Below are positions 19,526 through 24,247 of a DNA stretch of 64,000 nucleotides, in pieces. The notes beneath the pieces were generated by a model. That model did not search any database, had not been told where the DNA came from, and saw only the letters and a program-made list of their open reading frames with translations. Each line of letters begins with the position of its first letter. Position 1 is the stretch's first letter. A program made the translations under genes and the position numbers. Source of the stretch: Bacteroidetes bacterium UBA2475 (lineage in GTDB: Bacteria > Bacteroidota > Bacteroidia > B-17B0 > Aurantibacillaceae); the NCBI GenBank assembly GCA_002342065.1, contig DDPF01000010.1:327507-391506 (forward strand), written 5' to 3'.

Positions 19526-20305
19526 ATGAGCAATTATCTTTCAATTCCGTTAATTTCCTGGGCAGTAGTCGCCGTTATCATGGTAATTATATGGTTCTGG
19601 GCCTTAAAGATCAAGAACAATGGCATTGTAGATATTTTTTGGGCATTTAACTTTACGGTTATTGCAGGTATTATCTGGTATTTAGCGGATGGCAATCCTG
19701 AAAGAAAGATTTTAGTTTGTGCACTGGCCGGTTTATGGAGTTTACGTTTAGGAATCTACTTATTGATCCGTGTTGGCGGCCATATAAAAGAAGAAGAAGG
19801 TCGCTACAAACAATTACGTTTAGAATGGAATGATGCAAAATTCTTTTTCTTCTTCCAGATGCAGGCTTTTTCAAATGTAATGTTAGCGCTTCCATTTTTT
19901 ATCATCGCTCTTAATCCAAATCCGGAAATATCCATCATCGAATACATTGGTGCGGGCTTATGGTTCTTATGCATTATTGGCGAAGGCATTTCTGACTGGC
20001 AACTACAATACTTTAAAAAACATAATACAGTAAAAGGAAAAGTTTGTGAGTTTGGTCTGTGGAATTATTCCCGTCACCCAAATTATTTTTTCCAATTTTC
20101 TTTATGGATCTCGGTTTTAATTTTTGCTTTACCTAGTCCTTACGGTTGGATCTCCGCGATCTGTCCTTTGTCCATCGGGTATTTATTATTTAAAGTAACA
20201 GGTATTCCAATGACGGAAGAACAGGCCGTTCGTAGCCGTGGCGAAGCATACAAAGAGTATCAACGCACAACAAGTGTTTTTGTACCCTGGTTTAAAAAGA
20301 AATAA
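19526..20305 (+). CDS. DUF1295 / steroid 5-alpha-reductase-like membrane protein
   Basis: 'VDIFW', 'WSLRLG', 'EEGRY', 'GLWNYSRHPNYF'. Confidence 0.88.
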   Translation: MSNYLSIPLISWAVVAVIMVIIWFWALKIKNNGIVDIFWAFNFTVIAGIIWYLADGNPERKILVCALAGLWSLRLGIYLLIRVGGHIKEEEGRYKQLRLEWNDAKFFFFFQMQAFSNVMLALPFFIIALNPNPEISIIEYIGAGLWFLCIIGEGISDWQLQYFKKHNTVKGKVCEFGLWNYSRHPNYFFQFSLWISVLIFALPSPYGWISAICPLSIGYLLFKVTGIPMTEEQAVRSRGEAYKEYQRTTSVFVPWFKKK

Positions 20306-20376
20306 GGAAAATGTAAAAGGAAAAATGGAAGATGTAATACTCTCCCTTTTCCATATTACCTTTTCCATTTTACATT
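20306..20376 (+). repeat. Inverted pair of degenerate heptamer tandem arms, no enclosed gene
   Basis: Left arm aaaatgt-aaaagga-aaaatgg-aagatgt; right arm ttttcca-tattacc-ttttcca-ttttaca. Confidence 0.75.
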
Positions 20377-20386
20377 AGTATAAATT

Positions 20387-21415
20387 ATGTTTTACAATAA
20401 ATTACTTGAAAAAGATAAACTTCCTGATTCTCTCATTCGCATTGGTATTCGCAAGTTATTAAAGCAGCGTTTACAAGATGAGAATAAAGGAAATACCGAA
20501 GCACAACAAGCACATTTAATGCAATTGATAGCTGAATTAAAAGCATCACCAATTGCAGTTAATACACAAGAAGCAAACGATCAACATTACGAAGTTCCAA
20601 CTCAATTCTATCAATACTGTTTAGGTAAACATTTAAAATACAGTAGCGGTTATTGGAAAGAAGGGGTTGCTGATATCGATACTTCCGAAAAAGACATGCT
20701 TGAACTAACCTGTCAACGGGCAGAATTAAAGGATGGGCAAGAGGTATTGGAATTAGGTTGCGGTTGGGGCTCTCTTTCATTATTTATGGCAGCTAAATTT
20801 CCTAAAAGTAATTTTACGGTTGTATCTAATTCCCGCACACAAAAAATTTATATCGACGATCAGGCAAAACAAAGAAACGTTAATAATTTAACTGTTATTA
20901 CTATAAACATTAACGATTTTGTTTTAGATAAAACCTTTGATCGTATTGTTTCGGTGGAGATGTTTGAGCACATGCGTAATTACCAAAAATTAATGCGTAA
21001 AGTAGCTACGCTTTTAAAACCCGAAGGAAAATTGTTCGTTCATATTTTTACACATAAAGAGTATGCGTATAAATTCGAAGTAAAAGATGAAAGCGATTGG
21101 ATGAGTAAATATTTTTTTACCGGCGGCATTATGCCAAGCGATGACCTTCTACTTTATTTTAACGAACATTTAAGTATCGAAAAGCACTGGCATGTGAGCG
21201 GTACTCATTATAGCAAGACATCTGAGGCCTGGCTTCAGAATATGGATAAACACAAAACAGAAATAATTCCTTTATTTGAGCAAACCTACGGCAAAGAAAA
21301 TGCGGTAAAATGGTGGGTATACTGGAGGATTTTTTATATGGCCTGCGCCGAATTATGGAACTTTAATAATGGCGAAGAATGGATAGTGAGTCACTATTTA
21401 TTTACCAAAAAATAA
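20387..21415 (+). CDS. Class I SAM-dependent methyltransferase, CMAS/cfa-related
   Basis: 'HYEVP', 'LKYSS', 'LELGCGWG', 'IVSVEMFEH', 'FFTGGIMPS'. Confidence 0.88.
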   Translation: MFYNKLLEKDKLPDSLIRIGIRKLLKQRLQDENKGNTEAQQAHLMQLIAELKASPIAVNTQEANDQHYEVPTQFYQYCLGKHLKYSSGYWKEGVADIDTSEKDMLELTCQRAELKDGQEVLELGCGWGSLSLFMAAKFPKSNFTVVSNSRTQKIYIDDQAKQRNVNNLTVITININDFVLDKTFDRIVSVEMFEHMRNYQKLMRKVATLLKPEGKLFVHIFTHKEYAYKFEVKDESDWMSKYFFTGGIMPSDDLLLYFNEHLSIEKHWHVSGTHYSKTSEAWLQNMDKHKTEIIPLFEQTYGKENAVKWWVYWRIFYMACAELWNFNNGEEWIVSHYLFTKK

Positions 21416-21419
21416 AACT

Positions 21420-22550
21420 ATGTGGCGTTTACTTGTTGCAGTTCTTCTTTTCCTTTTATCCTTAATGGTGTTCTTTAAGGCGCCAACTAATTTTTTATGG
21501 AGAGTATCAGTTGCAATTACAGAATTTCCGTACATCTTTATTCTTGCTTCGCTTTTATTTTTCTTTGTATGCTTAAAAGCCACTAAATACAAAACAGCAG
21601 TTGTAACTCTAAGTAGCATAACTACTTTAATATATATCCTTCCCATTATCCAGGTTTACATGCGTGGAAATAACTTAACTGAAGATCTCAAAAAAAAATT
21701 CCCCTTTAGAGAGAATGAACAACATCTACAACAGCCCTACTCCTTTTTAAAAATGTTTAGCAGTATTAAGGGTGAAGAGATTACACCACAAATTTTTGCA
21801 TACAAAAAATTACAAGAAAGGAACCTGAATATTGATCTTTACCCCTCACAATCAAACACTGTGTCTCCCTGTGTAATTGTTATCCACGGCGGTTCCTGGG
21901 CAGAAGGCGATAGCAAACAATTACCGGACCTGAACAGTTATTTAGCAAACAAAGGTTATCATGTGGTAGCTATCAATTACCGGTTAGCTCCAAAATATAA
22001 ATCACCTGCACCGGTTGAAGACCTTAGAGATGTAATAAACTACTTAACTGCTAATTCAGAAAAATTAAAGATCGATACATCCAACTTTGTTTTGCTTGGT
22101 CGTTCGGCGGGTGGACAAATTGCTTTATGTGCTGCTTATACTTATAACTTACCAAATATTAAAGGCGTAATTTCTTTTTATGCTCCGGCTGATATGGTTT
22201 GGGGCGCAAGAATAAAAAGTAATAAACTTGTTTTAAACACGGATAAGGTATTTACAGATTATTTAGGAGGACTAATAGATGAAGTCCCACAAAAATATCA
22301 AGAGGCAGGTGCAGTGGATCATGTAAACAAAAATTCACCTCCAACGTTAATTATTCATGGCGCACATGATGCCATGGTCGCATATGGACATAGTGAACGC
22401 CTGGATAAAAAATTAGAGGAGAATAATGTCCAACATTACTTCTTAAATTTACCCTGGGCCACACATGGCTGCGACTATAATATTAATGGGCCAAGTGGCC
22501 AAATAACAACTTTTACAATTGAACGTTTTTTAAACTCAGTAACAAATTAA
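21420..22550 (+). CDS. Membrane-anchored alpha/beta hydrolase (HSL-like esterase)
   Basis: N-terminal TM segments, 'HGGSW', nucleophile 'GRSAGG', 'HGAHD', 'HGCD'. Confidence 0.85.
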   Translation: MWRLLVAVLLFLLSLMVFFKAPTNFLWRVSVAITEFPYIFILASLLFFFVCLKATKYKTAVVTLSSITTLIYILPIIQVYMRGNNLTEDLKKKFPFRENEQHLQQPYSFLKMFSSIKGEEITPQIFAYKKLQERNLNIDLYPSQSNTVSPCVIVIHGGSWAEGDSKQLPDLNSYLANKGYHVVAINYRLAPKYKSPAPVEDLRDVINYLTANSEKLKIDTSNFVLLGRSAGGQIALCAAYTYNLPNIKGVISFYAPADMVWGARIKSNKLVLNTDKVFTDYLGGLIDEVPQKYQEAGAVDHVNKNSPPTLIIHGAHDAMVAYGHSERLDKKLEENNVQHYFLNLPWATHGCDYNINGPSGQITTFTIERFLNSVTN

Positions 22551-23797
22551 TGCAAACATTAGCTATCATAGGAACAGGAATTGCAGGCATGGGTTGCGGA
22601 CATTTGCTTCAAAAAAAATACAATATAACTTTGTTTGAACAGAACAATTATATTGGCGGACATACTAACACGTTTTCCACTGAAGAGGATGGCAATAAAG
22701 TTTTTATGGATACAGGTTTTATGGTCTTTAATTTTGAGACATATCCAAATCTTTGCAAATTATTTGATGAAATAAAAGCACCGATCAAAAAAACGGACAT
22801 GTCGTTTAGTGTGCAACACACTGCGAGCGGCCTTGAATACTGTGGTTCCGGACTGAATGGTTTATTTGCTCAACGTAAAAATATCTTTAGTATCGGTTAT
22901 ATTAAAATGCTAATAGAAATAACACGCTTTAATAAAATAAGTGTAGAAATTTTAGATGATCCGAAATATGAGAATCATTCTTTAGCACAATACATTAAAG
23001 AATTTAATTTTAGTGAAGAGATGCTTTGGAAATATTTAGTACCTATGAGCTCTGCAGTTTGGAGTACGCCAATGGATAAGATGTTAGATTTTCCAGCCGT
23101 TGCACTTATTCGATTTTTTAAGAACCATGGCTTTTTGGGATTGAATACGCAACACCAATGGTATACGTTAGAAAACGGGAGTCAATCTTATCGCGAGATC
23201 TTAATTAAGCCATTTAAAGACAAGATTCATATTAATAATGGTGCTGTAAAAGTTAGTCGTAATGCAAATGGAAAGGCCACTCTACATTTAAAAGATGGGA
23301 CTTCAAAAGAATTTGATAAAGTTATTTTTGCTTCGCACGCTGATGAAACTTTGAAAATATTAGACCAACCAACAGCAGAGGAAAAAAGATTATTGAGTCC
23401 ATTTAAATACCAAAAAAATATTGCCACGGTTCATACAGATGAATCAACTATGCCAAAAAACAAGAAAACATGGAGCAGTTGGAATTATAGGATAGAAGAA
23501 CGAAATGGAAAACAGGTTCCAACAACTATTTATTGGATGAACAGTTTACAAGGCGTTTCTAAAAAGAAAAATTATTTTGTTTCTATAAATGCCATTCCCG
23601 GAACTGTAGATAAGGCTAAGATATTAAAAGAAATAGATTACGAACACCCCTTATTTGATGTAGCGGCCATTAATGCGCAAAATGAATTACAAACATTAAA
23701 TGAAAGCGGACCTTTGTACTATTGCGGAAGTTACTTTAAATACGGCTTTCATGAAGATGCTTATGCCAGTGCGGTAGAACTGTGTAAACGAATGTAA
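22550..23797 (+). CDS. FAD-dependent oxidoreductase of the cfa/DUF1365 cluster (UfaD-like)
   Basis: 'IIGTGIAG', 'GGHTNT', 'DTGFMVFN..TYPN', 'YGFHEDA'. Confidence 0.88.
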   Translation: MQTLAIIGTGIAGMGCGHLLQKKYNITLFEQNNYIGGHTNTFSTEEDGNKVFMDTGFMVFNFETYPNLCKLFDEIKAPIKKTDMSFSVQHTASGLEYCGSGLNGLFAQRKNIFSIGYIKMLIEITRFNKISVEILDDPKYENHSLAQYIKEFNFSEEMLWKYLVPMSSAVWSTPMDKMLDFPAVALIRFFKNHGFLGLNTQHQWYTLENGSQSYREILIKPFKDKIHINNGAVKVSRNANGKATLHLKDGTSKEFDKVIFASHADETLKILDQPTAEEKRLLSPFKYQKNIATVHTDESTMPKNKKTWSSWNYRIEERNGKQVPTTIYWMNSLQGVSKKKNYFVSINAIPGTVDKAKILKEIDYEHPLFDVAAINAQNELQTLNESGPLYYCGSYFKYGFHEDAYASAVELCKRM

Positions 23798-23823
23798 AAT
23801 GTAAGATGGCAAAGGGAAAATGG
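23791..23823 (+). repeat. Left heptamer arm of the four-helix-bundle cassette
   Basis: aatgt-aaaatgt-aagatgg-caaaggg-aaaatgg, starting over the upstream gene's stop codon. Confidence 0.7.
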
Positions 23824-23844
23824 AGTGAATTAAAACAATAGAAA

Positions 23845-24207
23845 ATGAATGATAGAACTCAACAATTATTAGATAGAACATTTGATTTCGGAGTAAATAT
23901 TCTTAAATTTTTACGAAAGCTTCCAGATGATCATATTTATAGAATACCGAAAGTACAGGTTGGCAGGTCTTCCATTTCGATTGGTGCAAATTATGAAGAA
24001 GCTCAGGGTGCAGTATCAAAAAGAGATTTTTCTAATAAAATTGGCATTAGCTATAAAGAAGCCCGTGAAAGTCTTTATTGGTTAAGAGTTTTACAAAAAT
24101 TATATGAAGAAGAGAAATATCAAAAAGAGTTTGAAATATTTTTAAAAGAATCCCAAGAGCTAAAAAATATTTTTGCTGCTATTAAAAAATCGTCCAAAGA
24201 AAGCTAA
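23845..24207 (+). CDS. Four helix bundle protein (23S rRNA IVS-protein / TIGR02436-like family)
   Basis: 120 aa; 'QVGRSSISIGANYEEAQ', 'SKRDFSNKIGISYKEARESLYWL'. Confidence 0.9.
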   Translation: MNDRTQQLLDRTFDFGVNILKFLRKLPDDHIYRIPKVQVGRSSISIGANYEEAQGAVSKRDFSNKIGISYKEARESLYWLRVLQKLYEEEKYQKEFEIFLKESQELKNIFAAIKKSSKES

Positions 24208-24210
24208 TGA

Positions 24211-24247
24211 ACTTTACATTTTCCATATTACCTTTTACATTTTCCAT
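24211..24247 (+). repeat. Right heptamer arm of the four-helix-bundle cassette
   Basis: ctttaca-ttttcca-tattacc-ttttaca-ttttcca; inverse complement of the left-arm unit. Confidence 0.75.

Follow-up and report, generated by a model that had tools for sequence, protein, structure and literature searches.

Our analysis of a 64,000-nucleotide stretch of DNA from Bacteroidetes bacterium UBA2475 (the window) indicated that a 71-base hairpin at 20306-20376, between two genes of a lipid operon, is probably (at a likelihood of roughly 0.6) a gene-less member of a clade-specific family of dispersed imperfect palindromes, namely an old REP/MITE-like insertion that is carried in the operon transcript and does not descend from a four-helix-bundle (4HB) gene cassette nearby. 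The hairpin is real and non-random, and its 18-nt identity to that cassette is ordinary within the family. Each family member consists of three to five tandem ATGKAAR heptamers opposite three to five inverted ones, and according to the mechanism we propose, the present copy would have entered a site at which the stop codon of the DUF1295 gene and the next start codon formerly lay a few bases apart (TAA-AAT/ATT-ATG). Orthologous copies survive in at least four other species, and in others the element would have decayed or been cleanly removed. Its behavior resembles that of a selfish, non-autonomous repeat of the REP/REPIN or MITE kind with a preference for gene 3' ends. The hairpin and the 4HB cassette have an arm type in common without descent from that cassette copy, and in the mRNA the element would serve at most as a weak double-stranded target of RNase III or as a brake on the coupling of the two cistrons. 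We infer that the element spreads by copying rather than by local origin and that its effect on the operon is small.

The sequence-only reading that preceded this work had described heptamers and inverted heptamers following the DUF1295 stop, and the sequence indeed reads in this way, with four ATGKAAR-type heptamers facing four inverted ones. The stop codon TAA of the DUF1295 gene (20303..20305; PF06966, E = 1.3e-60; this and all other window features described here are on the + strand) directly adjoins a purine-rich left arm of approximately four degenerate heptamers (20306..20337; GGAAAATGTAAAAGGAAAAATGGAAGATGTAA), which scored 25/28 in a periodic scan and is 89% complementary to the right arm of the 4HB cassette. 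A loop at 20338..20346, which contains no coding remnant, leads to the pyrimidine-rich right arm (20347..20376; TTTTCCATATTACCTTTTCCATTTTACATT, last base 20376), which matches repeat family D2 at 86% over 37 nt. Bases 20333-20346 are unpaired in the minimum-energy fold, giving a loop length of about 10-14 nt, and the folding energy of -17.2 kcal/mol (z = -2.26) marks a moderate hairpin. The next start codon, at 20387, is separated from the right arm by 10 nt (20377-20386), and the TAA-ATT-ATG at 20381..20389, comprising a second TAA and the start codon of a CMAS-like methyltransferase gene, equals the whole stop-spacer-start junction of a related genome, G016. The right arm holds the 18-mer TTTTCCATATTACCTTTT, whose reported identity to the cassette's right arm was confirmed as exact (20347-20364 and 24219-24236), with no third site in the 4.15-Mb genome. 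When up to three mismatches were allowed, six matches were found in the window compared with 0.51 expected; a chance origin of the 18-nt match was rejected, since 0/100 shuffles reached the observed count and the shuffled genome contained no arms. A search of Rfam at the hairpin returned no match to rRNA or any other family.

The genome of the hairpin's own strain (G000; other G numbers denote the genus genomes compared with it) was scanned for arms with a periodic (ATGKAAR)x4 pattern, for which at least 22 of 28 matching positions were required. At 24 or more of the 28 positions, 44 arms were present in the genome and none in the shuffled genome. Forward and reverse arms formed 21 pairs, of which 20 are gene-less hairpins of 66-102 nt and one is occupied by a gene (456 nt), and one lone strong arm lies outside the pairs; this count of occupied and empty sites bears out the earlier claim that the arms persist independently of the passenger gene. 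The gene-less copies mean that what had been seen as the "arms" of IVS-like gene cassettes constitutes a repeat population in its own right. An exact run of at least 18 nt is common to 28 of the 210 element pairs, and the longest match of the hairpin is one of 20 nt to the copy at C7:804276, compared with 18 nt to the cassette; because such sharing is common and the best match lies elsewhere, the shared 18-mer reflects family membership and not direct descent from the cassette. A special kinship between the hairpin and the neighboring cassette was accordingly rejected, the hairpin being at least as close to other members of the family as it is to the arms of the cassette.

When all copies are aligned, the arms end in (A)ATGTAAA or ATGGAAA, and a GGAGT(G) motif at the end of the cassette's left arm is kept in several gene-less copies. 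Neither G000 nor G056 was seen to carry near-identical copies at two separate loci, and there is therefore no sign of recent movement; recent transposition was rejected, as the best-matching G056 copies have one arm alone in common (30-31 nt). Across 10 copies, no target-site duplication was detectable, the longest direct repeat averaging 3.8 nt in an element's own flanks and 3.6 nt in mismatched flanks. ATAA (ATTAA in G012) does flank the 78-nt segment between the two TAA codons that holds the 20306-20376 copy, and ATTAAA flanks the copy at C1:48879, although the ATAA may be due to chance. No transposase or nuclease is linked to the heptamer arm type. The term "MITE-like" used in the sequence-only reading was thus a fair analogy in that the family shares with MITEs its terminal inverted repeats, small size, absence of coding capacity, and presence or absence between relatives; it is limited in that no target-site duplication could be detected and no autonomous, transposase-encoding parent is known, the sole gene-bearing copy encoding a PF05635 four-helix-bundle protein.

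That sole occupied copy, the 4HB cassette, lies 3.4 kb downstream of the hairpin (23792-24247), at the junction between an amine-oxidase-like gene (AO) and a DUF1365 gene. The first unit of its left arm (23792..23826) overlaps the last codons and the stop of the amine-oxidase-like gene, the 4HB gene (23845..24207) belongs to the 23S rRNA-IVS protein family (PF05635, E = 1.3e-14; TIGR02436, E = 2.1e-20), and the right arm (24213..24247) ends 3 nt before the DUF1365 start codon. At the orthologous AO|DUF1365 junction, the 4HB cassette is present in G000, G016, G012, and G001; in G074, it carries a TGA stop inside the 4HB gene, and in G075, an internal deletion has reduced the gene to N- and C-terminal pieces within an arm-pair span of 330 nt. 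The junction is tight and overlapping in G021, G004, and G028. G009, the sister species (L051 3972-4542), and G005 (L054 1821-2667) instead contain a GxxExxY gene (TIGR04256) with TACGAAT-type heptamer arms where G000 has the 4HB gene, which is a replacement of one cassette by another at a single site. These states indicate that cassettes are vertically kept, decay in place, and can be replaced. A deletion inside a cassette, as in G075, is also a plausible route for the origin of the heptamer family.

Other members of the 4HB gene family were observed elsewhere. A 4HB gene approximately 45% identical to that of the window lies between the pyruvate dehydrogenase (PDH) E1 and E2 genes in many congeners (L026-L031, ~1440-1900 per locus), and its arm heptamers vary by species (AATGTTA, TAAAGAT, and AAAATTA types). 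The other two PF05635 genes of G000 (C7:737954-738268, - strand; C16:196471-196782, + strand) are likewise framed by a purine-rich and a pyrimidine-rich inverted arm, of different sequence, and each of these arm types has two to three gene-less relatives in the genome.

Comparison of the DUF1295|CMAS1 junction in close relatives, which the sequence-only reading had proposed, revealed hairpin, right-arm-only, near-empty, and other-arm-family states. A full heptamer hairpin is present in G012, G001, G010, and G075, and the left arm in G012 is nearly identical to that in G000. The right arm alone is kept in G021 and G005, while G009 (TAA-AAT-ATG), G016 (TAA-ATT-ATG), and G074 (a 10-nt spacer) carry no hairpin, their stop and start codons lying 3-10 nt apart. 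Unrelated sequence or other arm families occupy the junction in G003, G004, G017, G013, G018, and G028. In a maximum likelihood tree of the locus built from two proteins (AO and DUF1365), G000 and G009 were sisters (support 100/99), as were G012 and G021 (99/98); both pairs formed one clade with G016 and G075 (97/99), and G001, G074, and G005 fell outside it. Because junction states differ within sister pairs, clean losses or allele replacement are needed to explain them. The insertion is probably old, since G001, with the hairpin, and G005, with half of it, lie outside the clade; if so, a clean loss or the acquisition of an empty allele through recombination probably accounts for G009, G016, and G074. 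The alternative, several independent gains at one spot, is hard to reconcile with the nearly identical arms of G000 and G012. As a separate observation on this operon, its BD-FAE/esterase gene (window 21420-22550) is missing in G021 (L052) and G074 (L140), two genomes in which the oxidase gene comes immediately after the CMAS-like gene.

The same comparison bears on the claim that the hairpin is a deletion derivative or a pre-integration form of the neighboring cassette. In the former case, a 4HB cassette would once have occupied DUF1295|CMAS1 and later lost its gene while leaving the arms, an event for which the remnants in G075 and the TGA stop in G074 at the neighboring junction offer a precedent. 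The GGAGT(G) motif kept in several gene-less copies would also agree with it, but may be simply part of the arm consensus. However, the 4HB gene was found at DUF1295|CMAS1 in none of the species examined, and at the five filled sites, namely the present one and its orthologs in G012, G001, G010, and G075, the arms enclose no gene; their loops measure 10-30 nt (~10-14 nt in the hairpin itself) and bear no similarity to the 4HB gene. In addition, a former cassette would be required at each of ~20 separate sites per genome. We therefore consider in-situ deletion very improbable, and this part of the sequence-only reading was not sustained.

The heptamer family occurs in part of the genus, with any match in 29 of 76 genomes and five or more in about 19. 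All six genomes with the cognate 4HB gene contain many heptamer arms, but G056, G009, G063, and G047 have many arms and no cognate 4HB gene, so that arm abundance and the gene correlate only partially across the 76 genomes. These arm-rich genomes, among them G056 with 85 arm matches and G009 with 24, provide the strongest support for arms persisting without the passenger, as had been claimed. When the flanks of the 19 other hairpins of G000 were joined and searched in five relatives, many sites that were filled in one or more species were empty to within 0-5 nt in others (e.g., C11:9762, C12:64452, and C1:48879), and at several the same spot was taken by a different arm family (TACGAAT-type or AATTTAAAA-type). 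Such patchy filling, together with the presence of different families at the same spot, indicates that gene junctions in the genus are recurrently colonized by several hairpin-forming repeat families; the presence of different arm families at the same junctions could also be explained if gene ends were locally selected to carry some hairpin. The arms of IVS-like cassettes thus come, go, and replace one another where the genes of an operon lie closest together.

All 20 gene-less hairpins are intergenic, and most adjoin stop codons. Between co-oriented genes, 13 of 13 copies (the occupied one included) adjoin the upstream stop codon with a gap of -8 to +7, the TAA often falling inside the first ATGTAAA unit of the element, and the distance from these copies to the next start codon ranges from 3 to 870 nt. 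Four further copies lie between convergent genes, each in contact with both stop codons, and three or four lie between divergent genes. This placement could point to a functional RNA element of the operon, such as a terminator or attenuator, an RNase III processing site, or a 3'-end stabilizer of the upstream cistron as proposed for REP, a reading that we regard as unlikely. The regular position directly after the stop codon and the contact with both stops between convergent genes favor it, as do the occurrence of some hairpin family in some species at nearly every compared junction and the cleavage by RNase III of 23S rRNA intervening sequences with similar heptamer-bearing stems (PMC4990558), whereas the copies between divergent genes do not. 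A canonical terminator was rejected, as the + strand has no G+C-rich stem plus T run and the scan for canonical terminators found no + strand site at 20306-20376, the only nearby match being a 6-pair stem on the - strand; likewise, neither sigma-70 promoter nor terminator scans at the hairpin gave anything above shuffle expectation. The next start codon follows the right arm after only 10 nt, three relatives manage without any hairpin, and strong termination would leave the rest of the operon silent. In genome annotation, heptamer hairpins should not be taken as terminators by default.

The pairing of the arms likewise spoke against an RNA function. In a chimera test, in which the left half of one element was joined to the right half of another, the real elements of G000 folded at -20.5 kcal/mol and the chimeras at -25.6 kcal/mol, a weakness reached in 0/10,000 permutations, and arm-duplex energies pointed in the same direction, own arms pairing more weakly than chimeric ones. 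The weaker own-arm pairing was replicated in G001 (n=11, p = 0.02) and G056 (n=15, p = 0.003) and was not abolished by MAFFT orientation of the elements. Compensatory covariation of the stem, which would be expected of a maintained RNA structure, was thus rejected, the opposite having been found in all three genomes. Moreover, among the 12 copies with a clear transcription direction, 10 form a weaker fold on the sense strand than on the antisense strand. These results suggest that family members hold to a common heptamer motif but avoid or purge strong pairing within the molecule, which would then be selected against and not for. The weak pairing of partner arms speaks against the common view that such palindromes persist for the sake of the hairpin. 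The cause may lie in the instability of near-perfect palindromes in DNA or in the harm done by strong structure in operon mRNA.

Conservation of the motif without conservation of pairing would also be consistent with a protein-recognized array, in which the heptamers are putative binding sites of the 4HB protein or another factor that maintains or copies the arms, similar to RAYT-REPIN or Ssn-NTS. Single arms that are identical between elements with differing partner arms (over 30 nt between two elements in G056) fit such an array, as do the presence of the 4HB gene in the sole gene-bearing copy, the abundance of arms in all six genomes with an ortholog, and the same layout in other G000 arm families around GxxExxY genes. 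Nevertheless, G056, G009, G063, and G047 have many arms and no cognate 4HB gene, the orthologous PDH E1|E2 4HB gene carries arm sequences that differ by species, and to our knowledge the 4HB family (PF05635/TIGR02436) has no catalytic activity, nuclease activity included. On this evidence, an array maintained by such a factor appears improbable, and a dispersed selfish repeat remains our preferred reading.

With REP/REPIN elements and their RAYT genes (PMC3116915, PMC3733652), the heptamer family shares short imperfect palindromes in tens of copies per genome, an extragenic location mostly at gene 3' ends or inside operons, clade-specificity with patchy presence at orthologous sites, and a gene that is present once, inherited vertically, and bordered by the repeat itself. 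It differs in that the conserved GTAG/CGTC head is absent, the arms consisting instead of tandem heptamers, and in that the flanked gene encodes a four-helix-bundle protein and not a Y1 transposase. The genome has four Y1_Tnp (PF01797) matches, whose flanks hold G+C-rich palindromes of other kinds in place of heptamer arms; a cognate Y1 (RAYT) gene with heptamer arms is absent, and a RAYT link to the heptamer hairpins was rejected. Two of these RAYT-like genes (C17:114539-114880 and C1:261878-262231) carry palindromes of their own (TTGCCACGACCTTCAGGTCGTGG; CACCTGTCAGG...CCTGACAGGTG), suggesting that a classical REP/RAYT system coexists with the heptamer repeats.

In structure, the heptamer elements come nearest to the 23S rRNA intervening sequence. 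In Coxiella burnetii, this sequence, which RNase III cuts, has a stem with a variable number of tandem GACAGAT heptamers and an S23p/4HB ORF inside (PMC4990558). The likeness comprises the inverted-terminus stem, the tandem heptamers, a passenger of the same protein family, and the existence of ORF-less forms; however, the intervening sequence sits in helix 25 or 45 of the rRNA, whereas the heptamer hairpin lies in an mRNA operon between protein-coding genes. A further parallel is Ssn, a GIY-YIG single-strand nuclease shown to cut its own repeat (PMC11893778), which is likewise a small gene framed by a hairpin-forming repeat (NTS/SRM) with many gene-less copies (PMC11893778), although the gene framed here matches PF05635/TIGR02436 only. 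By analogy with these systems, the heptamer hairpins and the 4HB cassette might form a partnership of the REPIN/RAYT or Ssn/NTS type, in which an Avd/S23p-type 4HB protein would recognize the arrays and keep the arms uniform or spreading, and the 23S rRNA intervening sequences, long without an explanation, would be the same elements inserted in rRNA; we consider this conjecture quite unlikely. If it were true, partner arms would pair more weakly than random ones because what is maintained is the motif and not the hairpin. With one occupied copy, approximately 20 empty ones, and sister species that differ at single sites, the family offers tangible material for studying the nature of 23S rRNA intervening sequences and of their conserved four-helix-bundle ORF.

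Further repeat families were observed in the same genome. A second, larger family in G000, with ends (TT)AACCACATAGACACATAG, comprises 110 arms, 22 of them lone, and 44 gene-less pairs that span 120-172 nt and contain an internal GC hairpin (e.g., C1:14907-15043 and C1:346433-346569); its ends also frame two GxxExxY (PF13366) genes, with an occupied copy at C14:129031-129498. A third family, with GGAACGCTGATGACGCTGAT arms, has ~21 matches, including several gene-less pairs of 70-120 nt (such as C14:125298-125385 and C16:102464-102554) and one copy with a GxxExxY gene (C17:165071-165591). Arm families other than the ATGKAAR one include those with CCACATAG and GGAACGCTGAT. In related genomes, heptamer arms also occur in other arrangements. 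G001 contains tandem heptamer-arm clusters at a spacing of 64-73 nt (C1:1125055-1125221 and 1783940-1784096), reminiscent of the enterobacterial mosaic REP clusters (BIMEs), and arm pairs in G056 (L094, C119:14800-15400; L095, C12:15250-15750) enclose, in place of a 4HB gene, a shared non-coding passenger of ~100-250 nt that reads TTCAGGGTTGTGACGCAAAAA...CACATTTGAC.
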